Source: Fidelibacterota bacterium
GTDB taxonomy: Bacteria > Fidelibacterota > UBA2242
DNA: 15,154 nucleotides
Assembly: GCA_049975265.1 (NCBI GenBank)
Contig: JBNGDF010000005.1
Span: 114,386-129,539, forward strand
Direction of reading: 5' to 3'
Positions within the stretch are counted from its first letter, which is position 1; each line of letters begins with the position of its first letter. The notes beneath the pieces are model-generated. The model was not told the origin of the DNA. It was given only the letters and a program-made list of their open reading frames with translations, and ran no database searches. The position numbers were made by a program, and so were the translations under genes. Positions 1,810-15,154 of the stretch are shown here, piece by piece.

Positions 1810-3024
1810 TCATTTCCTCATTGATGTGTTTATTATCTTCTCATATTGCCTGAGATACTGTTTATGATATATTTCTTTACAATAATGATTTCGCACAGCG
1901 ACACTTCCATTCTTACCCAGTCTATCACACAATATTTTATTGCTGTATAACGTTAAAACTTTAGTGATAAAGTCATCAATATTTCCAGATTCAAATATTA
2001 AACCACACTGGTGTCTATTAATAATTTCTTCCTGCGGTACACAATTACTAACCAGCAATGGTCTTTCAAACAACATGTACTGAAAGATTTTATTAGCAAC
2101 ACCGGATTCATGCTGTTCATTTTTAATAATTGGCGAAAGACAAACATCGCTTTTACTGATATATGAAGGCAACAAACTTATATCTTTCCATTTATAGTGA
2201 ATAATGTGATTTTGCAGCCCTGGAGCATGTAGATATTTATTAAAACATGGTTCATCGGCTTTATCAACAGGTCCAATCATTAAAAGCAATATCTCTGGTA
2301 TTTTTTCAACCAGAGTTGGGAGTGCTTCCAATACCGTAAAAATCCCCCTTCTTTCAGCAATCGCACCAAAATAGAGAAGAGTAAACCGCCCCGAAGTATC
2401 AATAATATCTTCCCGAACAGGATATCGTCCGAATTCTTTAATACTGGGTAGATTTGGATAGACAACAAATTGATTATCTTTCAAAAACGAATATTGTTTC
2501 ATCAGCTGATTTTTAAAATACTCACTCAGCACAATAAGTCCATTAATCTTCTGTAATATAATTTTTTCAAGAGACATCCACCGTTGAGGTCGGATAAAGA
2601 TTTTTTGGGGGAATTTATTCGCCCAGCTATATGTACGAATGGCAGCCGGATAGTTCTCATGTAAATCAACAATTATCGGGACCTTTAAATTTTTGGATGA
2701 CCGAATTGCAGCTGGCGCCATATAGAGATCATGGACATGCAAAACATCAATTTTATAGTCCTTAATGAATTGTTCAATATAGGTCGTCCATTTCTTTGTA
2801 TAAAAATCAAGTCTACTTCCGATAAGTGCTCTGCCATTTCGAATCCATTTTCTATGGCGGTTAATTTCTACAAGTTTAATTCCTTTATAATTATTGTGGT
2901 CATGACCGCTGGCAGGATAGCAGATAATCGACACCGAGTAACCAGCCTGAATCAACATGCTTGCCTCATTCTCTACCCGTGAATCCGGTGGAAATTGCTT
3001 GTCCAGCACCATCCCTATTCGCAT
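1810..3024 (-). CDS. Glycosyltransferase family 4 (GT-B)
   Basis: 404 aa. FPPDSRVENEA at the N-terminus, DVLHVHDL, IIVDLHE, LLYFGAIAERRG, SDVCLSP and NKIFQYMLFERPLLVSN (variant of NKLFEYMxxGxP). Confidence 0.9.
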   Translation of the reverse strand: MRIGMVLDKQFPPDSRVENEASMLIQAGYSVSIICYPASGHDHNNYKGIKLVEINRHRKWIRNGRALIGSRLDFYTKKWTTYIEQFIKDYKIDVLHVHDLYMAPAAIRSSKNLKVPIIVDLHENYPAAIRTYSWANKFPQKIFIRPQRWMSLEKIILQKINGLIVLSEYFKNQLMKQYSFLKDNQFVVYPNLPSIKEFGRYPVREDIIDTSGRFTLLYFGAIAERRGIFTVLEALPTLVEKIPEILLLMIGPVDKADEPCFNKYLHAPGLQNHIIHYKWKDISLLPSYISKSDVCLSPIIKNEQHESGVANKIFQYMLFERPLLVSNCVPQEEIINRHQCGLIFESGNIDDFITKVLTLYSNKILCDRLGKNGSVAVRNHYCKEIYHKQYLRQYEKIINTSMRK

Positions 3025-3563
3025 AATTTACCCTTCTTCATGAGCACCAGCAGCGGCTCTTTCTCAAAATTAGCCTGTAATTTCTTAAACTCAGCCTGAT
3101 TCAGAATCAATGTCCCGATCTTGCGGTTGATCAATGCTTCTGTCTTCTTTCTCACCCGTTCAATTTCATCGTAATTGATATCATCGCCCACAATGACCAG
3201 TTCGATTAATCCTGTATCCTTGCCAACGGCGTAATCCCCTTTGATAAATGCCAGTTCAATGTCACCGGATTTGCGCAGAATGTTTTCGATGACCTGATCA
3301 ATACCGGTGGACTTCAGCACGATGGTGCGGATTTCTTCGAAGAGAGGGTGTCTGATGTTGGCGCGATAGACTTTGTTGCGCCCCTCTTTGCGGGCTTCCA
3401 GAATTTTAGCGTCGTTCAATCGGTTCAACTCTATGCGAATACCGTTGGTGGATTCGTTGAATTCTGTTGCCAGCTGGCGGAGATAGCCGCTGTTTTTCGG
3501 ATTGAGAAAAAATTTCAGCAGAAGTTTGATGCGGGTTTCGGATGTGATTAAAGTGTCAAGCAT
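3015..3563 (-). CDS. ArsR-like winged-helix transcriptional regulator with a degenerate nucleotidyltransferase-like C-terminal domain
   Basis: 182 aa. LITSETRIKLLLKFFLNP..GYLRQLATEFNESTNGIRIELNRL (HTH) and KEGRNKVYRAN (wing). C-terminal AFIKGDYAVGKDTGLIELVIVG resembles a decayed hGS..DxD motif. It overlaps the next gene by 10 nt. Confidence 0.8.
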   Translation of the reverse strand: MLDTLITSETRIKLLLKFFLNPKNSGYLRQLATEFNESTNGIRIELNRLNDAKILEARKEGRNKVYRANIRHPLFEEIRTIVLKSTGIDQVIENILRKSGDIELAFIKGDYAVGKDTGLIELVIVGDDINYDEIERVRKKTEALINRKIGTLILNQAEFKKLQANFEKEPLLVLMKKGKLCE

Positions 3564-3564
3564 A

Positions 3565-3593
3565 TTTTATGAGTAATAATATTACTCGTAAAA
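3565..3593. promoter_or_regulatory. Palindromic operator upstream of the ArsR-like gene
   Basis: Perfect GAGTAATA-a-TATTACTC (3571-3587), extending to ttttat...gtaaaa with one mismatch (13 of 14 bp per arm). It lies between the predicted -10 box and the ATG at 3563. Confidence 0.7.
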
Positions 3594-3620
3594 GATAAAA
3601 TACACTGCTGTTTTTGTCAA
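3592..3620 (-). promoter_or_regulatory. Sigma70-type promoter for the regulator-GT4-sulfotransferase block
   Basis: The minus strand reads TTGACA (3620-3615), a 17-nt spacer, then TATCTT (3597-3592), inside the largest intergenic gap of the locus (3564-3627). Confidence 0.7.
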
Positions 3621-3627
3621 GTATTTT

Positions 3628-4917
3628 TTATTGCCAGAAATGCCACAGGTCTTCCGGGGTTTCACGCCGTTTTAAGAGTTGACGTTTTTTCCCGCTATCG
3701 GAATAGCCGATGACGACGGGAATTTGGCGACTCAGGTGGCGACTCCACATGCTTAGTGTATAACCGCCGGTGTCGTGAATAATGATGAAATCGCCGGGAT
3801 GAATTTCCGGCAGTTCAATATCACGGGCTAAAATATCCCCGCTGAAGCAGAGCGGACCGACGATATTGTATTTTCGAAGATGGTGGCAATTTTTTATCAT
3901 TCCATGAGAATCCAGTACACTGAAATCGTGGTGCCAGTCCTGGGGAAAATAGCAACGTCGCATCAGGAAGTCGGCGCCGACATGAATCACGGCGGTGTTG
4001 GTGTTGCAGTATTCCTTGACGTATTCAACCCGGGATGCCGTCCAGCCGGCATTGGCGAATACCGACCGCCCGAATTCGGTGATTACCCGGTATTTTCCGG
4101 TAAACAGTCCGGGGCACTTTTGACGGAGCTGGTCGCGGTACAGCTCCATGGATGGTGGTTCGCGGTCCTTGTGGTAAGAGACCGGAAAACCGCCACCGAT
4201 ATCAACGATTTTGATTCTGTTTTTGGTAAACTTCCCGGCGAGCCACCGATTGGTCTCCTCTACGAAATTATAGACTTTCTGGACACCCTTGACCAGTTGG
4301 TCGACCGGATAGCCCTGACTGCCGATATGCAGGTGGACGCCGGTTAACCACGGATATTGGTAAAAAGCCTGACGGATCTCTTCACGGAATTCATCCATAG
4401 GCACGCCAAATTTTGAGTAATCGCCGGTGGTGCTGGTAATGGCGATTTTGCCCTGCCCGATTTGGGGATTGATTCGCAGACCGAAACGGCTCCGGGTCGA
4501 TCGGTTTTTTAGCAGATCAATGATGCGATTCATTTCGCTGAACGAATCGATATTCAGGTGAATGCCCAGATCAATTGCGTGGGAGAGCTCCCTGGTGGTT
4601 TTCGCCGGTGAATCAAAGACGATTTTTCGGGGTGCGAATCCGCTTTTTTCGGCGATGTAGAGCTCCGGGAAGGTGGCGGCTTCCGCACCGACGCCCAGTG
4701 ATTTGACGATTTTTAGAACTTTTGGAAGCGGGCAGGCTTTTAATGCCAGAGCATGCAGGGCGTCGGGGAAAAGGGATTGGATATACAGAATCCGCTCTTT
4801 GAGATAATCCAGATCGTAGCAGATAATTGTGTTGTCGCGGCTTTTTTGGATTAGAAAGGAGTCCAAAATTCCGGGTAGTGCCGTGCCGATTGTGGTGAGG
4901 GGGATATGGTGGTGCAT
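3628..4917 (-). CDS. Fold-type III PLP-dependent decarboxylase (Orn/DAP/Arg family, LysA-like; substrate probably not DAP, candidate cysteate decarboxylase)
   Basis: 429 aa. ALKAC (PLP Lys), VFDSPAKT, NIDS, LRINP, SKFG, GVHLHIGSQ, DIGGGF, TEFGRS, GPLCFSGD and DTGGY. The family is secure but the substrate is inferred. Confidence 0.85.
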   Translation of the reverse strand: MHHHIPLTTIGTALPGILDSFLIQKSRDNTIICYDLDYLKERILYIQSLFPDALHALALKACPLPKVLKIVKSLGVGAEAATFPELYIAEKSGFAPRKIVFDSPAKTTRELSHAIDLGIHLNIDSFSEMNRIIDLLKNRSTRSRFGLRINPQIGQGKIAITSTTGDYSKFGVPMDEFREEIRQAFYQYPWLTGVHLHIGSQGYPVDQLVKGVQKVYNFVEETNRWLAGKFTKNRIKIVDIGGGFPVSYHKDREPPSMELYRDQLRQKCPGLFTGKYRVITEFGRSVFANAGWTASRVEYVKEYCNTNTAVIHVGADFLMRRCYFPQDWHHDFSVLDSHGMIKNCHHLRKYNIVGPLCFSGDILARDIELPEIHPGDFIIIHDTGGYTLSMWSRHLSRQIPVVIGYSDSGKKRQLLKRRETPEDLWHFWQ

Positions 4918-4921
4918 AGCA

Positions 4922-5611
4922 TTAATAGCGGTTTAAACCGCACTCGACTTTTTCGCTGTCGTGCCACCGGCATTCCCGTTCATTGGAAGGATTTTCAATT
5001 GCCGTGGTACAGGGCTGACAACCGATACTGTGATAGTTCATATCGTAAAGCGGATTGTAGGGAATTTTATACTGATGGATAAAGTCCCACAATTCTGCGC
5101 GATGGCGGTTGTAAAGCGGGTGAATTTTGAGTGTCCCCCGGGAATCGATTTCCACCGGTCGGATGTTAGCACGGTTGGGAGTCTGATCGCGGCGAATGGC
5201 GCTTAGCCAGGCTTTTTTAAGGGGTAGAATATTCAGCAGCGATCTAATCTTCAGATGGTAACAGCATTGGTCGGAATTGGTTTTATAAGGAGGGTTGCCA
5301 ACCATGGCAATCAGCTCAGCGTGGCTGATTTCGGGTTCGATTATTTTCAGATTCAGCTGCCATTTTTCCCGTAATTCTTTCACAAACCGGACTGTTTCCG
5401 GAAAATGGTAACCTGTATCAAAGAAAAAGAGTTCTATACCCGGATAATATTTTCTCAGGTGATAAATTAATACAACACCGTTATAGCTGCAGGTTGTCGT
5501 CATGCCCAGGTCGCTGCCATAGGTCTCCACTGCCCATTTCAAGATGCCGTCAATATCGGCATTCAGCAGTTTGCGATTAGCCTTTTCGACAAATTCTTGA
5601 TCAATCTTCAT
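4922..5611 (-). CDS. cysH: Adenylyl-sulfate/phosphoadenylyl-sulfate reductase (CysH family, [4Fe-4S] type)
   Basis: 229 aa. FDTGYHFPET, CCYHLK, AIRRDQ, KIHPL, YNPLYD..YHSIGCQPCT and C-terminal ECRW...ECGLN. The CC...CxxC motif marks the Fe-S class. Confidence 0.9.
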   Translation of the reverse strand: MKIDQEFVEKANRKLLNADIDGILKWAVETYGSDLGMTTTCSYNGVVLIYHLRKYYPGIELFFFDTGYHFPETVRFVKELREKWQLNLKIIEPEISHAELIAMVGNPPYKTNSDQCCYHLKIRSLLNILPLKKAWLSAIRRDQTPNRANIRPVEIDSRGTLKIHPLYNRHRAELWDFIHQYKIPYNPLYDMNYHSIGCQPCTTAIENPSNERECRWHDSEKVECGLNRY

Positions 5612-5627
5612 TATTTACTTTCCATTT

Positions 5628-6953
5628 TTAGGTAAACAGTTGGGCGATTTTCTGCCATTGTCGTGAAATTTTTCGATTCCGATCCACCGGCTGACATTCC
5701 GACAGTTTCGTAATCATGGGCTTTTTGGTGATATATTTTTGGGTAAAATCCGGCTCGCGCAGAACCCCCTCGCCGAGATTTAATACGACAATGTCGCCGT
5801 TGAAAATCCGACCAGTGTGGAGTGCCTGAAACAGGCCCAACACCGGGAGGGCTGCAGCGGGGCCAACCAGAACCGAGCGTTCCATAGCGATTAACCGTGC
5901 CACATGAATCACTTTGCTTTCGTCTCCGGCGATGATATCGCCACCGGTTTTGCGGACAAACTGGCTCAAAAACGGATATGTTTTCGGGTTTCCGGTTGCC
6001 AGTGTGGGGATAGTCGTTTGTGGTTTTTTAATGATTGGAAAATCGTTCTGCCAGCCTTTGGGAAAATTATTGTTTCGGGCTTTCTCCCAGGCGATTGCCA
6101 TGGGAGCACATTTACTGGATTGAACCAAAATTTGCCTTGGTAATTGTGAGACCAGGTTAAGCGGTTCCAGCTCCATAAAGGCTTTTTCGATACCCAGCGG
6201 ACCGGTTCCGCCGCTTAGTGCCTGGATATAGACCGTCGGGAAATCTTCCAGAACCCGCAGCCACTCGTAGACCATTGTTTTTTTTGCTTCCACCCGCAGG
6301 GGATCAAAATTACCGGCGGCTAATAAAATTCCGTGGTTTGCCGCAAATTCCGCCGCCATTATTTTGGCGGCTTCGTAATCACCGTCCACGCGAAACACCG
6401 TTTGTCCGTAGCCGCCGATATGCGCTTCCTGTAAGACGGAGGAATTGTAGGGGATAAATGCGTAGAGCGCAATCCGGGCGGCAGAAAGGTATTTTGAATA
6501 GGCTGTTGCGATATTACCGGTACTGGCGACGACATAGTTGTCATAGCGGTTTTCCCGCAAGGCGCTGGCAACCACCGTACCAGCCATGTCTTTGAAGGTG
6601 CCGGTACCGGGATTCAGGTCGTTTCGCTGAATGTAGATTTTACAATCCAGATTCAGTACTTCATGGGCGTATCGCTCAATGAAATCCCAGCGTTCAATCG
6701 GTACGATTCCCTCATTGAAAGTGACGATATTTTTCCTGTCCAAGAGGGGGAGATAGTCAAAATAGTGCCAGATATTTTTTGGTTCAAGCCCTTTCCGAAC
6801 CAGTTTTTTCAGCGGTTCATAGCCGCTGTGATAGTGGACAATGACTTTATGACCGCCACACTTGTCGCATTTTTGCCAGTTGGAAAACCATGTTTTGAAA
6901 TCGGGAATTTGGTTGTTGCATTCGCGACACTGCAGGAAAAGTTTGGATTTCAT
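5628..6953 (-). CDS. Threonine synthase-like fold-II PLP enzyme, candidate cysteate synthase
   Basis: 441 aa. N-terminal CxxC...CxxC (CREC/CDKC), NPGTGTFKD (PLP Lys), VASTGN, RVEAKKT, YIQALSGGTG, GPAAA and VVLNLGEG. Confidence 0.8.
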   Translation of the reverse strand: MKSKLFLQCRECNNQIPDFKTWFSNWQKCDKCGGHKVIVHYHSGYEPLKKLVRKGLEPKNIWHYFDYLPLLDRKNIVTFNEGIVPIERWDFIERYAHEVLNLDCKIYIQRNDLNPGTGTFKDMAGTVVASALRENRYDNYVVASTGNIATAYSKYLSAARIALYAFIPYNSSVLQEAHIGGYGQTVFRVDGDYEAAKIMAAEFAANHGILLAAGNFDPLRVEAKKTMVYEWLRVLEDFPTVYIQALSGGTGPLGIEKAFMELEPLNLVSQLPRQILVQSSKCAPMAIAWEKARNNNFPKGWQNDFPIIKKPQTTIPTLATGNPKTYPFLSQFVRKTGGDIIAGDESKVIHVARLIAMERSVLVGPAAALPVLGLFQALHTGRIFNGDIVVLNLGEGVLREPDFTQKYITKKPMITKLSECQPVDRNRKISRQWQKIAQLFT

Positions 6954-6986
6954 GAGATTTGAACCGGTTTTTTCAGATTTTCATTG

Positions 6987-8870
6987 TCAATTGGATTGAT
7001 TATTCAAATCATGGCAATCGTTTGCCATGCGCAGAAAATATTCTACGCCCGCTAATTTATACAAAAATTCGTAATTATCTAAACGTTGCGCATCCGGAGT
7101 GCTGAAGGATTCAAGGTAGGCATGCCAACGGGGGGAATCGATTATTTCCGTCAAAACCATGGCATTGGGATCGATCAGACTGCCAATTTCAGGATCGGTC
7201 AGCAGATTTTTATAGATCGGCAGATAGTCCCAGGTTTGCTGCAGCTGGGAGGCAACCTGCATTCCCAGCCGTTTTTTTATTTTTCCGGTAAATTTCGAAG
7301 ATTGAGCGATCCAGTACCGGAATAGAAAGAGCCACTGCCGGAGACCGGTTTTGGGCAGCATGTCAAGGTTGCCGAAGCTCGTCGGTTCCCGGGCGAGTCT
7401 CTCATCGAGACGGGTGACGACTCCGCGCTGGATTTTTGAGAGATTGTATTTCCACTGTGGTGGCATGGACAGCGCAGCTTCAAGATTTCGTCTCATCAGC
7501 AACGGCGACAGCATATCGATGGCGCAATTGCAGGTGGTGTTGGACACGTTTCCAAAATTGGCATAGCATTCCAGATCGAATTTATCCAGCTGTATCGCTA
7601 CCGGTGCATGTTCATAGCCGGAGCGGGAGCGGTTCAGAAGTTCCGTAAAATATTCGGCGGAATTCCGTTTAATCTCAAGAAAATTGTCCTGAAAAATATC
7701 GTCCCGATATTTTGCGTTTAAAATCCGGTATTTCAGGAGACGCTCGACATTGACATGGCGGGGTTCGCGGTACAGATTCAGGACGTATTGCTCGTTCCAG
7801 AGTCCGTCTTTATAATATCGTCCGTGCACACCGTTGACCACGCAGCTGGCAAAGGGCAGATAGCTGCTTTTCATATAGAAAATCCGCCCTAGCATGAACC
7901 CCGGTTCTTCGCAGCTTCCCAGTGTCACCGCCAGTTTGAAATAGTCGAAAAGATGGTCCAGAAAATCCTGCTGCAGTTTGATATGGTGGGTCTTAAAACC
8001 GTATTTCTGCGCCATCCGTTTGACATTGATCACCTCCACATCGTCGTCCAGACCGAAAATCGCCGTCTCCACATCGATCTTTTGGCTGGTAAATCCGGCA
8101 AAAACCGTTCGCGAATCCTGCCCCGTTGTAAATTCCACTACCTTATGCTGAAAATGTTGATCGATCAGGCGGGCGGTTTCCTGAATGCTGTCCGCCATTA
8201 ACTGGATGTTATCCTCAAGTGACAGAGATGTATACTGTTTCGGCCAGTGCCAGTAATTCGTTAATGTCAGGTAATTGTTTTTGATTGAGTAAAGGGATGC
8301 CGAATTCAGGCGCCGGACGTTTTGGAGCATGGACCGTTCAGAGAGAATGTAATAGCGCCAGAGAAATTCATTTAGAGCATAATAATCGGGTTTCGGCTTG
8401 ATGATGACAGCCGCAAGCAGCAAAAAGGGGGTGATCAGTACATAGTCATCGGTTTCACAGATAAAATTGGTATGGGTCTTATCAAAATCATTGATAATCA
8501 GGTATTCGTCGGCATCGGCATCGTAGAGTTTGATCACGAAGTGACCGTCGAGACGGTTTGCCATTTGTGAACCCTGGTTCTGATAGAGCTGCCACAGCTC
8601 TTCGGCAGAATACATTTTGGTTTGCTCCAGTGCAAAAACCACTCCTTCGTAGATCAGCCAGCTGCCGGATTTGTCGAAGTAGGATTTGGATGGTTCATTT
8701 TGCTTCCGGAATTCTACCAGAAAACAGTTTTTCAGATTATCATGGTATTTAATCGTCCGGAAATATGTCTGAAAGTGGGCTTGAATTGCTTTTTTAAATA
8801 CGGTTTTAACACGATTGAATTCACCGGATTTCGATTCTTTTTTCGAATATAGCAATAACACTCCAGCCAT
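6987..8870 (-). CDS. Asparagine synthase-related ATP-dependent amide ligase without the N-terminal catalytic Cys
   Basis: 627 aa. MAGVLLL start (MCGI in AsnB), LDGHF, NYW, variant PP-loop FTTGQDSR, VNGVHGRYY (GxxGD-like position) and SPLL (PF-like). Confidence 0.72.
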   Translation of the reverse strand: MAGVLLLYSKKESKSGEFNRVKTVFKKAIQAHFQTYFRTIKYHDNLKNCFLVEFRKQNEPSKSYFDKSGSWLIYEGVVFALEQTKMYSAEELWQLYQNQGSQMANRLDGHFVIKLYDADADEYLIINDFDKTHTNFICETDDYVLITPFLLLAAVIIKPKPDYYALNEFLWRYYILSERSMLQNVRRLNSASLYSIKNNYLTLTNYWHWPKQYTSLSLEDNIQLMADSIQETARLIDQHFQHKVVEFTTGQDSRTVFAGFTSQKIDVETAIFGLDDDVEVINVKRMAQKYGFKTHHIKLQQDFLDHLFDYFKLAVTLGSCEEPGFMLGRIFYMKSSYLPFASCVVNGVHGRYYKDGLWNEQYVLNLYREPRHVNVERLLKYRILNAKYRDDIFQDNFLEIKRNSAEYFTELLNRSRSGYEHAPVAIQLDKFDLECYANFGNVSNTTCNCAIDMLSPLLMRRNLEAALSMPPQWKYNLSKIQRGVVTRLDERLAREPTSFGNLDMLPKTGLRQWLFLFRYWIAQSSKFTGKIKKRLGMQVASQLQQTWDYLPIYKNLLTDPEIGSLIDPNAMVLTEIIDSPRWHAYLESFSTPDAQRLDNYEFLYKLAGVEYFLRMANDCHDLNNQSN

Positions 8871-9865
8871 TACAATCTCCCGATCTTTTTCAGCGACTGA
8901 TATTTTAGTACGTACATCCGCAGGGCGTTGTAAACGGTATCCTGTTGACGGAAGAGCACAGCATAGTCATGGAATATTTGATTGCCGGTCAATTGGTGCA
9001 GCAGGCGCATCTGGACCTGATGCAGGCGCTGATAGGAAATAGTCGCCGGGTCAATTCCCGGATGCCAGTCCGCCCGGCAATAGTTGTAGCGCGACCAGAA
9101 TCCGAGATCGTATTCCGGTAAGATATTTATCAGCGTATTCACGCCGTCATTGTAGAGTTTCCGGGCTAATGTGTTCTCGGGAAAGACGCGGATAAAATCG
9201 TAGAGCCCCAGAAGCGCGAAAACGTTGCCGTTCAGTACGAGAGTCGGTACTTCCGCCGTATATTCTTCATAGAAAGGACCCCATTCTGTGAACGAGGTGA
9301 CACCGCCTGCCTGAGCCGATTTGGTGAAGGGGACCAGCGCCTTTTCCGCCAACTCTGCATATGACGGTTTACCGGTCAGCTGATAGGCGCGCAGCAAAAT
9401 ATTCATGGCTCTTGCCTGGGAAAAGGCGGAAGCCCAGGGACCGGGATTTTTGTACTGGGGCAGGGCGACATCGGTCAGCCAGCGGGCGCCGAACTCCACA
9501 CTGGTTTCGACATTATCGCAGAACCAGTCGGCAAATTTCAGAAAGCGCTGTTTATCTTTTTCCGATTGGGTTTGCAGGTAGGTATGAAACACTGCCAAAC
9601 CCATTTGTCCGATTGAGATTGGGAAATAGACATATTCCTTGTCAGTCACGTCAATATAGGTTTTGTTGACAGGTATGCCATTTTCATCAAATTTACTGAT
9701 CAAAGCCTGGTCTTTTCCGGCTGATACCCGCTCCTCCTTGAATAAAAAATAATACCAAGTCAAATCAGATGAATGAACATCCTCAGCTATAGCATACCTG
9801 AGTTTGGGCGTTTTCAGATCAGACCGGAATTTAGTGAGCATAAAAAATATTTTTCTGATCTTCAT
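8870..9865 (-). CDS. D-glucuronyl C5-epimerase family protein (C5-epim_C domain)
   Basis: 331 aa. PISIGQMGL, WASAFSQA, FYEEY..PTLVLNGNVFALLGLYD, YDLGFWSRYN and SYQRLHQVQM correspond to the conserved C-terminal motifs of heparan sulfate C5-epimerase. Confidence 0.88.
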   Translation of the reverse strand: MKIRKIFFMLTKFRSDLKTPKLRYAIAEDVHSSDLTWYYFLFKEERVSAGKDQALISKFDENGIPVNKTYIDVTDKEYVYFPISIGQMGLAVFHTYLQTQSEKDKQRFLKFADWFCDNVETSVEFGARWLTDVALPQYKNPGPWASAFSQARAMNILLRAYQLTGKPSYAELAEKALVPFTKSAQAGGVTSFTEWGPFYEEYTAEVPTLVLNGNVFALLGLYDFIRVFPENTLARKLYNDGVNTLINILPEYDLGFWSRYNYCRADWHPGIDPATISYQRLHQVQMRLLHQLTGNQIFHDYAVLFRQQDTVYNALRMYVLKYQSLKKIGRL

Positions 9866-11187
9866 AACACTCTCTCAAAAACAGAGACCAGCTGCCGGGT
9901 CAATTCATAACGCGAGTATTTGGCAAATTCCCGCAGTTCTCTGGGAGCTAAAGTGCGATTCTTCCACTGTATAAATAATTTGCCAATAATGGTCGAAAAA
10001 TCATCGGTCGGGTCAATGACTCGGCCGCAGTCTGTCTCGTGCAGAATAGCCGCCGCTTCTCCATGCCGGTTGCCGACTCCCAAGATATAGTTCCCGGTGA
10101 TCATATACTCAAAAAGCTTCCCCGGAATATGGCCGGCGTAGTCCCGTACATTCTCCAGAAAGAGCAACAGCAAATCGCCGGAACACATTTCATACATCGC
10201 CTGATCATGGGGAATGTATCCCATGAATTCAGTGACATGATAGGGCTTCAATATATCAGCGATTTCATTCTGAACTGATGATTCGATTTTTCCGGCAAAC
10301 CGAAGCACAAAATTTTCTGATGACAACAGGCCCCTTTCCAGCAGACTGCGGATTCCCCTGTAAAAGGCCGGGTAAAACCGATTTCTGTTTATACTACCGA
10401 TATGGACAATAGTAAATTTTGGGTTTCTCTGTTTCCTGACTGGCACTTCAGGTTGATCAAAACCATTTGTGATCACTGTTGTATTTTGTTTAATATCAGC
10501 GCCGATTAGGGCAATAAACTGCCGGCTAGCAGCTGTCAGCCAGTTGGCCGAGTTGACAGTCTGCTTTTCTTTAACGCCATCAAGCCATTTTGAAAAAGAC
10601 GACCGCTTACCACAATAGTAATGAATTTGGGTCCAGGGATCCCTGAAATCAGCTACCCATTTCGTCCCGCTCCATTTCGCCAGTTTTTTGGCTATCAGAT
10701 GCACGGTTGGCGGTGGCGATGATGAAAAAATCATATCTGGCTGGTGTTTTTTAATTATTTTCCGGCCCTTTTTGACGGCGAAGGGAATCCAGCCGATTTT
10801 GGCATCGGGAATAAATAGATTGAGCCGAACCCAATTGGCTATTCGTCTCTTCCAATTGAGATTTTTTTCAGATAATACAGCTACGGGAATTTTCTCACCT
10901 TTTTTCATGCCGGCAAAATTTTTATACAGATTGGTTGGCTCCCAGGAATTGGTTTTATATACAATACATTCTTTCGGTATATCTTTTTCCAATGTATTAT
11001 CAATGGCTGGGAACTCCCCCGTTTTCACCGTCAATATAATCGGCTGCCAGCCAAATTCAGGCAGGTATTTGGCGAATTTCAGGACCCGCTGGACACCCGG
11101 TCCGCCAGCCGGCGGCCAGTAATAGGTAATGATGAGGACTTTTTTCAGTTTTTTATGAGGCAATAAAGCGCTCCGGTGCTGAACCAT
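9862..11187 (-). CDS. Glycosyltransferase family 4 (GT-B); true start may be CTG at 11148
   Basis: KKVLIITYYWPPAGGPGVQRVLKFAKYL, FIPDAKIGW, SSPPPTVHL, WVADFRDPW, ITNGFD and IPGKLFEY. Confidence 0.9.
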   Translation of the reverse strand: MVQHRSALLPHKKLKKVLIITYYWPPAGGPGVQRVLKFAKYLPEFGWQPIILTVKTGEFPAIDNTLEKDIPKECIVYKTNSWEPTNLYKNFAGMKKGEKIPVAVLSEKNLNWKRRIANWVRLNLFIPDAKIGWIPFAVKKGRKIIKKHQPDMIFSSSPPPTVHLIAKKLAKWSGTKWVADFRDPWTQIHYYCGKRSSFSKWLDGVKEKQTVNSANWLTAASRQFIALIGADIKQNTTVITNGFDQPEVPVRKQRNPKFTIVHIGSINRNRFYPAFYRGIRSLLERGLLSSENFVLRFAGKIESSVQNEIADILKPYHVTEFMGYIPHDQAMYEMCSGDLLLLFLENVRDYAGHIPGKLFEYMITGNYILGVGNRHGEAAAILHETDCGRVIDPTDDFSTIIGKLFIQWKNRTLAPRELREFAKYSRYELTRQLVSVFERVL

Positions 11188-11918
11188 TCATTGATGAATA
11201 GACTGTTCAGTGGTTGTCGTATGCGGCGTATATTGAAGCGGTATTCATGTGCCGGTCGGACGATATAAAACTGACGTTGATGAACCGTCAGTGGGAGTTG
11301 ACTTGTCATTTGTTCAAACTGACGGATACTAAGACGACAGGCTTTGACGTTTAAAAAATTGTCTATTCTTTTCCGGGGAATTTTTAACAGTGCCAGATAC
11401 CAGGCGTAGAGATTATCCGGCAGGCAATGAAGGTACGGTAATTTCCCCGGAAGTGCCGGGCTTCCCTGCTGATGTCCGGCATAGGCTGAATATTTTGGTG
11501 GAAAGGAGATGAACAATTTTCCCCGGGATTTCAGCAGGGCGACCATATTCTGTAGTGCCACTATTTTTTTTTCAGGCTCAATATGCTCGATAACGTCCCG
11601 ACAGATCACGATATCCATTTCACCGGGAATTTTATCCCGGTAGGTCGCCGGATTGGTAATGTCACCATTTACAAACAGGATATTGGAATGTTGATCCAGG
11701 AGAACCGCAATTTCATGGCGGTGAACGGCGAACTCAATTCCGTAGCAGCGGTGACCCTTTTCAGCAAAATATTGTAAGGTTCCTCCTTCGGCGGTTCCGA
11801 CTTCGCAGATGGATAAGCCCGTTGCTTCGGAGATGTTTAGAAAACCTTCCAGTACATGACTGGCGTACCAGTATTGTTCATTGAAATAATTCAGATTACG
11901 GGGGGGAATCGCGTTCAT
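11145..11918 (-). CDS. Class I SAM-dependent methyltransferase, probably glycan-modifying
   Basis: 257 aa. ICEVGTAEGG (motif I), YGIE, NGDIT, DIVICRDVIEHI and LKSRGKLFISFPP..AGHQQ. It sits between two glycosyltransferases with overlapping junctions. Confidence 0.88.
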   Translation of the reverse strand: MNAIPPRNLNYFNEQYWYASHVLEGFLNISEATGLSICEVGTAEGGTLQYFAEKGHRCYGIEFAVHRHEIAVLLDQHSNILFVNGDITNPATYRDKIPGEMDIVICRDVIEHIEPEKKIVALQNMVALLKSRGKLFISFPPKYSAYAGHQQGSPALPGKLPYLHCLPDNLYAWYLALLKIPRKRIDNFLNVKACRLSIRQFEQMTSQLPLTVHQRQFYIVRPAHEYRFNIRRIRQPLNSLFINEWFSTGALYCLIKN

Positions 11919-12949
11919 TTGTAATACTTCTTCACAAAGCCGGTGAACTCGTCTTTTTTAAAGACTATCCGGCGAATAAAATTAACAGTGAAGCCAAAGC
12001 CGTAGGCGAAGACCTGGCAGACGGCGACCACCGGCGCCAGGCAGGCAGCCGGCAAACTGTGATATCTGCGCAGACTGTCAACAAAGATAACCACGAAAAT
12101 CAGGAACGCCAGCCCGGTGACCCCCAGCCAGACTTTCAGCGCTAAACCGGTCAGCAATGTAAAAATCGTCAGCAGTGTATAGCCGACAGCGGCAATGGCG
12201 GGTATGAAATGCAGCGGCTCCAGAATCCCCTGATCGATAACAGTCAAATTGATGCGCGCCACGCCCCAGTTGAACATCTGTCGGAAAAACTTCCGCAGGC
12301 TGCTGCGCCGTTTGTGGTAAACTACCGCTTTGGGAATAAAAATAACGTTGACGCCGCTGGCGACGATCCGGCGGCTGAATTCCAGGTCCTGTCCGTGCCG
12401 CAGAGTACCCATACCCCCCAAAGATTCGAAAATCTTGCGGTGAATGCCCATATTAAAGCTGCGGGGATAATATTTTGCCAGTTTTCTCTTTGAGCGACCG
12501 CGCATGCCGCCGGTCGTCAGGAAAGAGGTCATGGAATAGTCAATCGCCTTTTGCAGCGGCGTGAAATTATCGAGAACCGAATCAGGTCCGCCAAATGCAT
12601 CGGGTTTTTCCTGTTCAATCGCTAACCCCAATTCGCTCAGCCAGTTCGGATCGGCGATGCAATCGGAATCAATAAACAGAAAATATTCACCCTCCGCCTG
12701 GCTCATCCCGAAATTACGCGCTGGTCCGGGGCCCTCGTGATCCCGCTGGAAAAAGCGTATTCGGAAAGGCGATGATTTGATCAGCTCGTTGACAACCGCG
12801 GTTGTATCGTCTGTGGAACCGTCATCCACCAGCAGTACCTCAAAACGCTCCTTGGGAAAGGTCTGCCGGTTAAAGGATTGAACCAGGTCGACAATTTCAT
12901 CAGACCGGTTATAGCAGGGTACAATAATCGAAAACAGATAGTTGTGCAT
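11915..12949 (-). CDS. Glycosyltransferase family 2 (GT-A) with C-terminal transmembrane helices
   Basis: 344 aa. SIIVPCYNR, VDDGSTD, GPGPARN, FIDSD, AFGGPD, YPRSFNMG, GQD and VYHKRR, followed by about three hydrophobic segments. Confidence 0.92.
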   Translation of the reverse strand: MHNYLFSIIVPCYNRSDEIVDLVQSFNRQTFPKERFEVLLVDDGSTDDTTAVVNELIKSSPFRIRFFQRDHEGPGPARNFGMSQAEGEYFLFIDSDCIADPNWLSELGLAIEQEKPDAFGGPDSVLDNFTPLQKAIDYSMTSFLTTGGMRGRSKRKLAKYYPRSFNMGIHRKIFESLGGMGTLRHGQDLEFSRRIVASGVNVIFIPKAVVYHKRRSSLRKFFRQMFNWGVARINLTVIDQGILEPLHFIPAIAAVGYTLLTIFTLLTGLALKVWLGVTGLAFLIFVVIFVDSLRRYHSLPAACLAPVVAVCQVFAYGFGFTVNFIRRIVFKKDEFTGFVKKYYK

Positions 12950-13890
12950 TATTTCTCATATCTCTGGCGGATAATCATTTCGCTGATCAGCCCCAGCGAA
13001 AAGAACTGCATGCCGAAAATAATGAGCAGAACGCCGAGCAGCAGCATGGCAATGTGGTTCCGAAAGGGATCACCAAAGGCATATTTCAAGATCAGGAGGT
13101 AGACCTCCGCGGCGAATCCCAGCAGCACAAAAACCAGTCCCCACAGTCCGAAGAAATGCATGGGGCGCTTTAAAAATTTCATGGTAAACAGGATGGTCAA
13201 CAGGTCCAGAAAGCCTTTGTAGAACCGGCTTACGCCGTATTTTGTTTTGCCATATTTCCGGGGGAAATGTCGAACCTTCATCTCGCCGCTCTTAAAGCCG
13301 TGGATCTTCGCCAGTACCGGAATGAAGCGGTGCATTTCGCCATAGACGGTGATACTTTTGACGACTTCGGCTTTGTAGACTTTCAGACCGTTATTCATGT
13401 CGTGCAGTTTGACGCCGGTCAACAGGCGGCTGACGAAGTTGTAGATTTTGGAGGTAATTTTTTTGATAAAGGGGTCTTTCCGGTTCTGTTTCCAGCCGGA
13501 AATCAGATCATAATCGCCGGTTTTCAACATGGCGACCATTTGGGGAATCGCCTCGGGATCGTCCTGCAAATCGGCATCAATTGTAGCGATAAATTCGCCT
13601 TTGGCGGCACTGAAGCCCTCGTTCAGAGCGGCGGCTTTGCCCAGATTGCGGGTGAGGCGGATCAGCGTTATTTCGGGATGATTCGCCGCTAGTTTCTGTT
13701 CCACCGCATAGGAACCATCCCGGCTGCCGTCGTCGACAAGAATGATTTCGTAGGCGTAGTCGCTTTTGCGCAGAGCGGCTTGAATGTTGCCGCACATTTC
13801 GGCGATGGAATCGACTTCGTTAAAAATGGGCACGATGACCGAGATTAAATTTGGCTGTCCGATATTTTCCACATGCTCTCCCTTTGTCAT
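12949..13890 (-). CDS. Polyprenyl-phosphate glycosyltransferase (DPM1/ArnC/GtrB-like GT2); alternative GTG start at 13872
   Basis: SVIVPIFNE, VDDGSRD, RNLGKAAAL, IDADLQDDP, SGWKQNRKD, GEMHRFIP and GKTKYG, plus two C-terminal TM segments. An SD-like AGGGAG lies 5 nt before the in-frame GTG at 13872. Confidence 0.92.
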   Translation of the reverse strand: MTKGEHVENIGQPNLISVIVPIFNEVDSIAEMCGNIQAALRKSDYAYEIILVDDGSRDGSYAVEQKLAANHPEITLIRLTRNLGKAAALNEGFSAAKGEFIATIDADLQDDPEAIPQMVAMLKTGDYDLISGWKQNRKDPFIKKITSKIYNFVSRLLTGVKLHDMNNGLKVYKAEVVKSITVYGEMHRFIPVLAKIHGFKSGEMKVRHFPRKYGKTKYGVSRFYKGFLDLLTILFTMKFLKRPMHFFGLWGLVFVLLGFAAEVYLLILKYAFGDPFRNHIAMLLLGVLLIIFGMQFFSLGLISEMIIRQRYEK

Positions 13891-13896
13891 GTTATC

Positions 13897-14574
13897 TCAG
13901 GCTAATTTACGGAATTCGACCTGAAATTGGGAGTACTGAATTGCAATTTTCACCTCTTTCCCGAAATTCAGGTTCACCGTTTGGGGAATCCAGTAATATT
14001 CTCCAAGGGAATTCCAGTTGGCATAAGTAAAGATGGTTCCGTTATCGGATTTCGGTGTGAGGCGGATGAGTCGCCGGTATCGGTCGTAGATGGGGTGATA
14101 ATCGGCGTTATGCTGCTCAATCTGTCCGATCAGCAGTCCGGTGAGGTCCTGCAAGGGTATCTGTGGAATGGTGTAGCGACCAATCGTTTCCGGAAGTTCG
14201 ATGCCGGAAAGGTGGCGATTTTCACGCTGCAGCCAGAGATGGTATTGATGGTTGTTCAAGGTAAATTGCGCCAGCTGCCGTTTAAGCGGGTCTCGGACCT
14301 GAATAAAAAGGGAATCCATGCCGGTGTAGTACAGCCAGGCGGAAAGGGTGACATCGCCTTCGGGCGATTGAACATTGATCCGGGCATTAAAGGAGAGGGT
14401 TGCGATAGCCTGCCGGAACGGCGGCGTGGATTCGGGACGTGGCAGAACGGTGGGCGTTTCACGGGTGGTAATATTGCGGATGATCGAACAGTTGTGTCCA
14501 TGCAAACAGAGGTAAAGGATGGTGATCAGAGAAAGGAGTCGCTTATTGAGAGACTTTTTTCTGGAGACGTTCAT
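13897..14574 (-). CDS. Exported/envelope protein, possibly DUF4292/LolB-like lipoprotein
   Basis: ATG at 14574 (or TTG at 14586). A basic N-terminus, then hydrophobic LLSLITILYLCL and a Cys (poor lipobox). The body looks beta-rich with DSLFIQVRDPL and YWIPQTV. It lies directly downstream of a TPR gene, as is usual for DUF4292/LolB. The family call is tentative. Confidence 0.5.
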   Translation of the reverse strand: MNVSRKKSLNKRLLSLITILYLCLHGHNCSIIRNITTRETPTVLPRPESTPPFRQAIATLSFNARINVQSPEGDVTLSAWLYYTGMDSLFIQVRDPLKRQLAQFTLNNHQYHLWLQRENRHLSGIELPETIGRYTIPQIPLQDLTGLLIGQIEQHNADYHPIYDRYRRLIRLTPKSDNGTIFTYANWNSLGEYYWIPQTVNLNFGKEVKIAIQYSQFQVEFRKLA

Positions 14575-15154
14575 TTTCGCTGTCAATTTCGAGGGCTTGA
14601 CGATAATATTTTTGGGCTTCTTCGGGTTTATTGAGTTTCATCAAAACATCACCCATGTGTTCCAGTACTTCGGCGTTATGTGGATTCGTGGAGAGCGCTT
14701 TTTCGATGTACTTTTGGGCGTCTTTGTAATTTTTCTGCAGATACAGAAGCCAACCCTTGGTATCGAGATAGGAGGCGTTATCCGGTTCAATCACCAGGGC
14801 TTTTTCCACCATTTGCAGAGCTTCTTCAATCCGCTCGCCGCGGAGCGCCAGACTGTAGGCATAGTTATTCAACGCTACCGCTTCATCGGGGTGTTGACTG
14901 ATAATCCGGTTGTAAAGACTGTCGGATAGCCGATATCGTTCCAGGGCTTCCCAGGTGTTTGCCAGCAGCAGTTGAGCCTGCAGATTGTCGGGCTTGATCG
15001 CGAGCACCCGTTGGAGATAGCGGACAGCTTCGTCATTGTTACCCTGATTGCTCAGGACATTCGCCCGGACGATGGGGAAGTAGCTCTGATCCGGAAATTT
15101 TTCCATGGCGGTGTCTGTAATGGAGAGAAGCGAATCGATTTCGTCATTCCGTGC
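14543..15154 (-). CDS. Tetratricopeptide repeat protein, 5'-truncated by the window edge
   Basis: The frame stays open upstream of the ATG at 15106 (ARNDEIDSLLSITDTA-MEKF...). TPR repeats include ALNNYAYSLA, ALVIEPDNASYLDTKGW, AEVLEHMGDVL and EAQKYYRQAL. Confidence 0.92.
   Translation of the reverse strand, partial: ARNDEIDSLLSITDTAMEKFPDQSYFPIVRANVLSNQGNNDEAVRYLQRVLAIKPDNLQAQLLLANTWEALERYRLSDSLYNRIISQHPDEAVALNNYAYSLALRGERIEEALQMVEKALVIEPDNASYLDTKGWLLYLQKNYKDAQKYIEKALSTNPHNAEVLEHMGDVLMKLNKPEEAQKYYRQALEIDSENERLQKKVSQ

Follow-up and report, generated by a model that had tools for sequence, protein, structure and literature searches.

In the coenzyme M pathway of the Methanosarcinales, cysteate is formed from phosphoserine and sulfite (PMC9457059; statements on this and the other papers cited here refer to the accessible parts of their text). 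The Bacteroidota have the capnine, or sulfonolipid, pathway, with the enzymes CapA/Cys, cysteate-C-fatty acyltransferase (CFAT; SulA, CapB) and KCR (PMC11211663, PMC11525784). CFAT consumes cysteate (PMC11211663), and the cysteate synthases of sulfonolipid synthesis were defined by similarity to validated references (PMC11525784). The known microbial routes to taurine need oxygen or are side activities (bioRxiv 10.1101/2024.03.02.583032, PMC12019592). Here we describe a four-gene cassette that may encode an oxygen-independent route to taurine and the attachment of the latter to a glycan. It is located in a 15,154-nucleotide stretch, referred to as the window, of the genome of a Fidelibacterota bacterium (assembly GCA_049975265.1, contig JBNGDF010000005.1, positions 114,386 to 129,539).

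The accessible text of the preprint on BfGAD (bioRxiv 10.1101/2024.03.02.583032) names only enzymes of the GAD/CSAD type. Anaerobic formation of cysteate followed by its decarboxylation has been proposed, with cysS and gadAB occurring together in none of the genomes considered in the accessible part of that study (PMC12019592). Taurine is known as an amide on N-acetylgalactosaminuronic acid (GalNAcA) in the type 1 capsule of Staphylococcus aureus (strain M) (PMC12043029), and an AsnB-like uronamide synthase of a glycan locus is BB0880 of Bordetella (b-Cool) (PMC12407052). In our assessment, this literature provides a precedent for the chemistry, and not for the enzyme considered here. WbpS is reportedly another AsnB-like uronamide synthase of glycan loci, and a taurine-amide lipid is reported from Hyphomonas (PMC4071594).

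The first-pass annotation of the window did not recall such a cassette as described, and our literature search, which left out supplements and had poor coverage of subscription journals, most of which were outside it, found no description either. The same search yielded no characterised taurine:uronate amide ligase that could serve as a reference enzyme. A limited look at bulgecin as a precedent for taurine-synthesis genes gave nothing. Every step of the pathway proposed below has a chemical precedent, and its enzymes come from unassigned families.

Organization of the cassette

The cassette consists of four co-oriented genes on the minus strand, at 6987–8870 (627 amino acids), 5628–6953 (441 aa), 4922–5611 (229 aa) and 3628–4917 (429 aa), separated by 33, 16 and 4 nt. 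The stop codon of the upstream gene (8870–9865) overlaps the start codon of the first cassette gene by one base (CATTA on the plus strand, TAATG on the minus strand). Thus the open reading frame (ORF) coordinates confirm the compact arrangement in a glycosyltransferase locus, reported at the first pass, as well as the junction with a C5-epimerase gene. The product of the latter has the C-terminal domain of D-glucuronyl C5-epimerase (PF06662, E 8e-40), its role as an epimerase being a prediction.

The first gene encodes a predicted ATP-dependent amide ligase with the AsnB/beta-lactam-synthetase fold. It is followed by the gene of a threonine-synthase-like enzyme dependent on pyridoxal phosphate (PLP), likely a cysteate synthase. 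The third gene, cysH, encodes the reductase of adenosine phosphosulfate or phosphoadenosine phosphosulfate (APS or PAPS), the source of sulfite. The fourth encodes a fold-type III PLP decarboxylase from a clade resembling diaminopimelate decarboxylase (DAPDC), likely a cysteate decarboxylase. CysH is the sole cassette protein above a curated family cut-off. The active-site motifs, initially considered non-canonical in three of the four proteins, are so in the ligase and the decarboxylase; the deviation is milder in the synthase (TFKD, EAKK), and CysH is canonical.

In the proposed pathway, Sat (and CysC) would activate sulfate, and CysH would reduce the activated sulfate to sulfite. The synthase would swap the phosphate of O-phosphoserine for sulfite, yielding cysteate, and the fold-type III enzyme would remove CO2 from cysteate, yielding taurine. 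Finally, the ligase would adenylate the carboxyl group of a uronate and transfer it to taurine, so that a surface glycan would carry the amide on one of its uronic acids. Such a glycan may also be sulfatase-resistant, as speculated at the first pass. On chemical grounds, decarboxylation should precede ligation, since amidation of the only amine of cysteate would block PLP binding. An undescribed oxygen-independent cysteate-to-taurine module is likely. The entire pathway including taurylation of the glycan is proposed tentatively, with the substrates deduced from the observed gene order, folds, motifs and co-occurrence.

The distribution of the synthase was established in 37 loci from one pattern scan of species genomes (44–95% identity) and two phylum matches (loci and genomes are denoted below by L and G numbers). 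The order epimerase–ligase–synthase–CysH–decarboxylase was found in four of the 37 loci, in two phyla, the distant ones having 45–63% protein identity; one further contig, a truncated one (L024), features synthase–CysH–decarboxylase. The closest related locus, with synthase identity of 95%, is labelled Ca. Neomarinimicrobiota. Such a recurrent order is not a chance arrangement. The genes thus co-occur elsewhere, in favour of the first-pass reading, but not as an invariable set: only the epimerase and the ligase make up a stable core, and the synthase, CysH and the decarboxylase are optional or replaceable.

Housekeeping copies and sulfate metabolism of the host genome

The genome contains a second fold-type III decarboxylase gene, lysA-like, with the canonical EPGR and CE motifs (C13:40804-42033), and six PALP genes, one of which (C4:161705-163228) has a thrC-type motif and is presumably thrC-like. 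Both Sat and CysC are encoded, the cassette CysH is the sole PF01507 match, and no NIR_SIR sulfite reductase was found in the genome, which is 95.3% complete. Any sulfite made in the cassette would have no detected route to sulfide. Given the separate lysA-like and thrC-like genes, the presence of Sat and CysC and the failure to detect sulfite reductase, housekeeping names for the cassette fail. This agrees with the initial opinion that routine annotation as asnB, thrC, cysH and lysA fits poorly, and the cassette enzymes are not the only thrC-like and lysA-like copies of the genome. The ordinary identity of the four genes was rejected on these grounds together with the changed residues and the scores below cut-offs.

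A SerA-like gene is situated beside genes for a class-V aminotransferase and a DUF1015 protein, both scoring below cut-off, and these may plausibly form a phosphoserine operon. The genome also contains genes that we take to be nucleotide-sugar dehydrogenase-like. A search with one query yielded no CFAT ortholog (the best match has 140.5 bits), and, as far as this query goes, capnine synthesis in this genome was ruled out. As the window synthase does not match the CapA model either, cysteate in this genome would go elsewhere.

Two other genes may be mentioned. An alpha-oxoamine-synthase-like gene (G000:C5:2321-3368), presumably serine palmitoyltransferase-like, is represented by two overlapping ORFs and is possibly frameshifted. 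A PALP protein (G000:C7:90764-91744) is assigned by us, from its motif, to the D-cysteine desulfhydrase/1-aminocyclopropane-1-carboxylate deaminase family, which presumably includes cysteate sulfo-lyase; it could participate in cysteate recycling.

CysH and the candidate cysteate synthase

CysH (4922–5611, minus strand) exceeds the cut-offs of TIGR00434 (173 bits vs 165.1) and NF002537 (186.5 vs 154) and has canonical motifs, CC...CxxC and the C-terminal ECG (ECGL). The score with the APS-specific model TIGR02055 is 152.3 at the cut-off of 235.3, with the CC...CxxC motif present; the genome having both Sat and CysC, it is possible that the substrate is either APS or PAPS. CysH releases sulfite from activated sulfate. 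Among 86 Calditrichota genomes, nine have CysH, and two of the nine have sulfite reductase beside it. Six of the other seven have the decarboxylase plus either the synthase or protein X, described below. One Calditrichota CysH near a contig end (G486:C717, L147) has no sulfite reductase, synthase or X found with it.

The candidate synthase (5628–6953, minus strand) belongs to PALP (E 1.5e-39), that is, to fold-type II PLP enzymes, and its Schiff-base lysine K121 is invariant in all 37 aligned rows. It scores 92.7 bits with TIGR03844, the model of the Methanosarcina-type cysteate synthase (cut-off 324.9), 79.5 and 151 with the threonine synthase models TIGR00260 and NF006050 (cut-offs 167.1 and 303, respectively), and does not match the CapA model NF053679 (cut-off 600) at E 0.001. 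Membership in TIGR03844 or CapA was rejected on these scores, no genome-wide search having been made with TIGR03844. Thus the suggestion of a Methanosarcina-type synthase was not borne out, and the protein represents a separate clade outside both families.

CysH is directly adjacent to the synthase in 21 of the 37 loci; it is encoded elsewhere in 12 of the 16 remaining genomes and in one of two further synthase genomes, that is, in 34 of 39 in all, and NIR_SIR was found in none of the 39. In eight of the 37 loci (L023, L025, L026, L028, L029, L031, L033, L036) a CFAT gene precedes the synthase. The gaps between them are from −8 to 10 nt in seven of these loci, whereas in L036 CysH is in between, the order being acyltransferase–CysH–synthase, with a short-chain dehydrogenase/reductase (SDR) gene upstream on the opposite strand. 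The acyltransferases are 72–93% identical to the L025 protein, which in turn matches PDB entries 28eh/7u7h with E 1e-184. None of the eight genomes has a CapA-model match above 170 bits (cut-off 600), in a search made without a positive control genome. The acyltransferase–synthase pair in the Bacteroidales with no CapA match is likely a sulfonolipid operon. In the midpoint-rooted tree, built from 35 of the 37 aligned rows after exclusion of those shorter than 400 aa, the glycan-linked clade sits between two acyltransferase-linked lineages. Since the neighbours are CysH and CFAT, and CysH occurs without sulfite reductase, the step from sulfite to cysteate, suggested at the first pass, is strongly supported, and the gene neighbourhoods make it highly probable that the synthase produces cysteate.

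In Aminicenantes-type genomes, no gene recognisable as a cysteate consumer lies near the CysH–synthase pairs (L006-L016, L019, L020, L030, L035), the decarboxylase clade described here is absent, and the CysH of these pairs has no CC...CxxC motif. In L012 and L035, CapC/PgsC, Mur-ligase-like and Asp/Glu racemase genes are found within 10 kb. In L021 (6651-8248), the synthase is followed by the genes of APS kinase and CysD, another linkage to sulfate activation.

The fold-type III decarboxylase and protein X

The decarboxylase (3628–4917, minus strand) is a fold-type III enzyme, hence outside the fold-type I group II decarboxylases CSAD and GAD. Its score with the lysA model TIGR01048 is 250 bits (cut-off 297.9), and it has the motifs EFGR and CF versus canonical EPGR and CE. 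The PLP lysine K60, R320 and F358 are each conserved in 120 of 120 relatives. F358 stands where the lysA-like protein of the same genome has glutamate, and in DAPDC this glutamate binds the distal amine of the substrate. The retained Arg320 and the lost glutamate would suit a substrate whose side chain is anionic and which has no distal amine. The best 120 of 1868 matches are all 49–58% identical to the window protein, itself aside; public records name such relatives diaminopimelate decarboxylase.

The decarboxylase is rare. It is present in three of 401 genomes of its own phylum, in three of 401 sampled Bacteroidota, and in eight of 86 Calditrichota, plus one truncated copy, making nine. Six of these nine genomes have the synthase and two have X, never both, and one (G438) has neither, whereas the synthase or X occurs in only one of the 77 other Calditrichota. 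At that, the decarboxylase is present in six of the 37 synthase genomes. A metagenome scan produced nine loci, one near-identical and eight distant (28–34%), and added nothing. Threonine-synthase-like matches in decarboxylase genomes with no synthase (G438, G467, G468, G845) were rejected, as they are not TIGR03844 members.

Protein X, encoded outside the window, is an unannotated protein of 460–490 aa that occupies the slot of the synthase and CysH, between the ligase and the decarboxylase, in L073 (10541-11983) and L074 (15159-16628), and precedes the decarboxylase in the Bacteroidota polysaccharide loci L086 and L087. The family has 614 matches at E 1e-10, and three CysH–X fusions are seen among the 120 matches listed. 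The model of X (pLDDT, the predicted local distance difference test, 91; 108 sequences) belongs to PLP fold-type I, and its TGSK motif contains a conserved lysine. The sequence profile of X had no match in the PDB. Language-model features yield a score of 0.87 for SepCysS, which is only a lead; the structural alignment with SepCysS has a root-mean-square deviation of 3.8 with 316 aligned positions. We regard X as a candidate fourth type of cysteate synthase.

The alternation of two unrelated CysH-linked PLP enzymes before the same decarboxylase is the best argument for a sulfonated amino acid as the substrate of the latter. The step from cysteate to taurine is thus moderately supported, both by co-occurrence and by the replacement of the synthase by X; given cysteate, the decarboxylase probably yields taurine.

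Many Bacteroidota records contain X, and it is also common on rhizobial plasmids, where it lies behind genes of non-ribosomal peptide synthetases and polyketide synthases (NRPS/PKS). Its entries include P0339, P0365 and P0385, the last being a CysH–X fusion. On the Rhizobium tumorigenes plasmid NZ_CP117265.1 (L127:5152-9903), X lies between a gene with tetratricopeptide repeats (TPR), ATP-grasp-like, and a group II decarboxylase gene. The ATP-grasp-type match of the TPR protein is weak (E 3e-4, below cut-off), and the arrangement, here in a cultured strain, looks like the same ligase–synthase–decarboxylase scheme assembled from different components. At three further rhizobial loci X comes after NRPS/PKS-type genes, which gives no diagnostic information.

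The amide ligase

The ligase (6987–8870, minus strand) has no Pfam match and only weak AsnB matches (TIGR01536, 20.6 bits vs the cut-off of 267.1). Profile comparison yields TsnB9, beta-lactam synthetase, AsnB and CarA. The AlphaFold2 model has pLDDT 95.4, and its top Foldseek match is TsnB9 (TM 0.67, E 5.6e-21); the identity to solved members in the structural alignment is only 9–14%. Profile and model together confirm the AsnB-type fold of ATP-dependent amide ligases, with its N-terminal-nucleophile-like and adenylation domains and a PP-loop. When 14 locus proteins are aligned with 97 of the 150 listed representatives, T248, G250, D252 and R254 of the loop region (TTGQDS in the window protein) are invariant in 111 of 111 rows. 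Class II amidotransferases use an N-terminal cysteine for the glutaminase reaction. In the ligase clade this cysteine is replaced by alanine in all 17 intact N-termini, which makes it likely that the amine is something other than glutamine-derived ammonia.

Of the 15 Calditrichota loci with the ligase, 14 have the epimerase gene upstream of it, and the fifteenth is cut by the contig end. This tie points to a uronic acid as the acceptor. In a tree of 20 ligases, in which kin share labels, the subclade containing the window protein (support 96/100) comprises nine decarboxylase-positive genomes and one negative (G460), and the labelled rows outside it are one positive and six negative. It is suggestive that the decarboxylase tracks one ligase subclade. 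Of the initial claim about the ligase, the AsnB fold and the epimerase partner stand, and the identity of the ligase and of the acceptor for the amine is a prediction. The ligase step is the weakest in the pathway. Still, given taurine, it is fairly likely that this ligase and a glycan acceptor are involved.

Alternative explanations

Several observations weigh against the pathway as proposed. In seven of the 15 Calditrichota genomes with the ligase, the decarboxylase, the synthase and X are all absent, and a looser search of five of these seven gave only lysA-like matches with 32–33% identity; hence the ligase does not need the cassette. Moreover, the second AsnB-like gene downstream in the same locus is a rival acceptor of the amine, the synthase occurs in loci with the second AsnB type where this ligase is not nearby (L005, L037, L126), neither AsnB-like query has a match within 20 kb in the X–decarboxylase loci L086 and L087, and the position behind the ligase accepts variable insertions. 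It may be that cysteate and taurine are made, and the adjacent ligase belongs to the glycan core in general and uses another amine, taurine being attached by the second AsnB-like enzyme, directed to a lipid or left free. We consider this somewhat unlikely. In L001-L004, L073, L074, L077 and L079, the gene immediately after the ligase, alone or with supply genes, is that of the decarboxylase, which tracks the ligase subclade described above, and the single-query search revealed no cysteate acyltransferase ortholog in this genome.

Another group of objections concerns the decarboxylase. The motifs indicate only an anionic substrate, and EFGR/CF is common to relatives from Streptomyces and Arthrobacter (36–42% identity) with no sulfonate genes recognised nearby, hence these motifs are not diagnostic. 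The genomes G438 and G703 have the decarboxylase and neither the synthase nor X, in G465 and G703 it is outside the glycan locus, and G437 has the synthase with no decarboxylase. In L073, a stand-alone HFCD/CoaC-like flavoprotein gene (PF02441; 13266-13799) directly follows the decarboxylase. Cysteate decarboxylases named in the accessible parts of the literature covered are all of the GAD/CSAD type, none of fold type III. Cysteate could then be used as such, for instance amidated directly, and the decarboxylase would act on some other acidic substrate, converting aspartate to beta-alanine or phosphoserine to phosphoethanolamine. This is unlikely in view of the fact that eight of the nine Calditrichota decarboxylase genomes carry one of the two CysH-linked PLP enzymes. 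The Fisher values for this co-occurrence, from 1e-9 to 4e-5, are overstated, as the genomes are kin and incomplete. The analogy of X is weakened as well: its structure ties among class-V aminotransferases, with SepCysS at rank 22 (Z 21.7 vs 25.4 for the top match).

As for the synthase, its nearest solved relatives are threonine synthases binding phosphohomoserine (E 3e-35), versus E 4e-18 for the solved cysteate synthase 9k3c; no CysH turned up in five of the 39 synthase genomes (G405, G423, G434, G437, G465); and the seven directly adjacent acyltransferase loci form one clade, which together with L036 makes about two independent contexts. A different nucleophile or acceptor (thiosulfate or sulfide; O-acetylserine or phosphohomoserine) would yield S-sulfocysteine, cysteine or homocysteate, and the amine would be a taurine analogue such as homotaurine or cysteamine. 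The position of the clade beside CFAT genes in genomes with no CapA match and the release of sulfite by CysH render this improbable. The absence of sulfite reductase, in turn, is the background of the phylum in the Calditrichota (84 of 86 genomes), hence the CysH-bearing genomes listed above are the informative control. Finally, the best database names of the four proteins are those of asnB, thrC, cysH and lysA, and the decarboxylase relatives appear in public records as diaminopimelate decarboxylase, so that one could think of duplicated amino-acid and sulfate-assimilation genes brought into a glycan locus by chance. This is very improbable given the housekeeping-like copies elsewhere in the genome, the undetected sulfite reductase, the changed catalytic or specificity residues, three of four scores below curated cut-offs and the patchy distribution of the decarboxylase. 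The synthesis of taurine via cysteate and its ligation to a uronic acid is therefore retained as the preferred, if tentative, description of the cassette.

Other genes of the locus

The cassette is a part of a long run of minus-strand genes: two family 2 glycosyltransferases (GT2), a methyltransferase, a family 4 glycosyltransferase (GT4), the epimerase, the ligase, the synthase, CysH, the decarboxylase, a regulator with a helix-turn-helix (HTH) domain, another GT4, a sulfotransferase and the second AsnB-like gene. On the upstream side of this run, an unassigned lipoprotein-like ORF and a TPR protein (13897-15154) stand ahead of the glycan core, and the core is preceded by similar genes in L002, L073 and L074. 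The first GT2 (12949–13890) resembles polyprenyl-phosphate sugar synthases (ArnC/PgfS-like, below cut-off). The second GT2 (11915–12949) and the GT4 (9862–11187) belong to the conserved core, and the latter precedes the epimerase in related loci too. The S-adenosylmethionine-dependent methyltransferase between them (11145–11918) is a variable insert, with no counterpart found in those related loci that were scanned.

Downstream of the decarboxylase and ahead of the HTH gene, a consensus match to a sigma-70-like promoter, TTGACA-17-TATCTT, is seen at 3592–3620 on the minus strand, which suggests that the cassette would close the upstream transcription unit; the promoter consensus scan produced 20 sites versus 10.5 expected from shuffles. 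In most related loci, the ArsR-like HTH regulator (3015–3563) comes after either the ligase or the cassette. The GT4 at 1810–3024 begins a variable glycan region with low GC content, 35–37% below position 3000 versus 44–51% across the cassette. It is followed by the sulfotransferase (820–1809; PF13469, E 4.6e-21), a second sink for activated sulfate, and by the 5' part of the second AsnB-like ligase gene (3–779), which has an SGGLDS loop and no cysteine at position 2. Beyond the window, after the latter, there are genes of a Wzx-type flippase and a YfhO-like membrane protein.

Comparison with known systems

The operon provides soluble candidate enzymes for the whole oxygen-free taurine route, which in the accessible text of PMC12019592 is held only as a hypothesis. 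If the proposed functions are correct, the cassette represents new families of cysteate synthases and cysteate decarboxylases, now labelled in public records as diaminopimelate decarboxylase or hypothetical proteins, and accounts for CysH in genomes with no sulfite reductase. In a wider setting, it is possible, though doubtful, that the FCB (Fibrobacterota–Chlorobiota–Bacteroidota) superphylum has a modular oxygen-free taurine pathway, with this threonine-synthase-like clade as the third type of cysteate synthase, X as the fourth, a fold-type III cysteate decarboxylase and, in the form of the AsnB-fold protein without the cysteine, a taurine:uronate amide ligase that sulfonates surface glycans via amide bonds.

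The cysteate synthase of the Methanosarcinales has the same threonine-synthase-like PLP fold, and the same reaction is proposed. However, the window protein is nearer to bacterial threonine synthases than to 9k3c, and the cassette has a decarboxylase downstream, with no transaminase or ComDE-like gene. Likeness to the capnine pathway is seen in the members of the synthase clade beside CFAT in eight loci, one of which, L036, also has CysH and SDR; if these make cysteate, they fill the cysteate step in acyltransferase-bearing Bacteroidales with no CapA. The difference is that the window synthase has no CapA match and its genome no CFAT ortholog found.

CSAD, GAD and BfGAD share with the cassette decarboxylase the proposed reaction, cysteate to taurine. 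They are group II enzymes of fold type I, whereas the window enzyme is a DAPDC-like enzyme of fold type III, encoded together with its own cysteate supply. The type 1 capsule of S. aureus has the same proposed type of product, and its account, in the accessible part, names neither a ligase nor taurine-synthesis genes (PMC12043029). If the last step is as proposed, the window ligase is a candidate enzyme for such taurine amides of uronic acids. With BB0880, WbpS, beta-lactam synthetase and CarA it has in common the two-domain fold and the ATP-binding loop, and with the first two also the position in a uronic-acid glycan locus. Unlike the glutamine-dependent uronamide synthases, it has no glutaminase cysteine, and glutamine-derived ammonia is an unlikely substrate.

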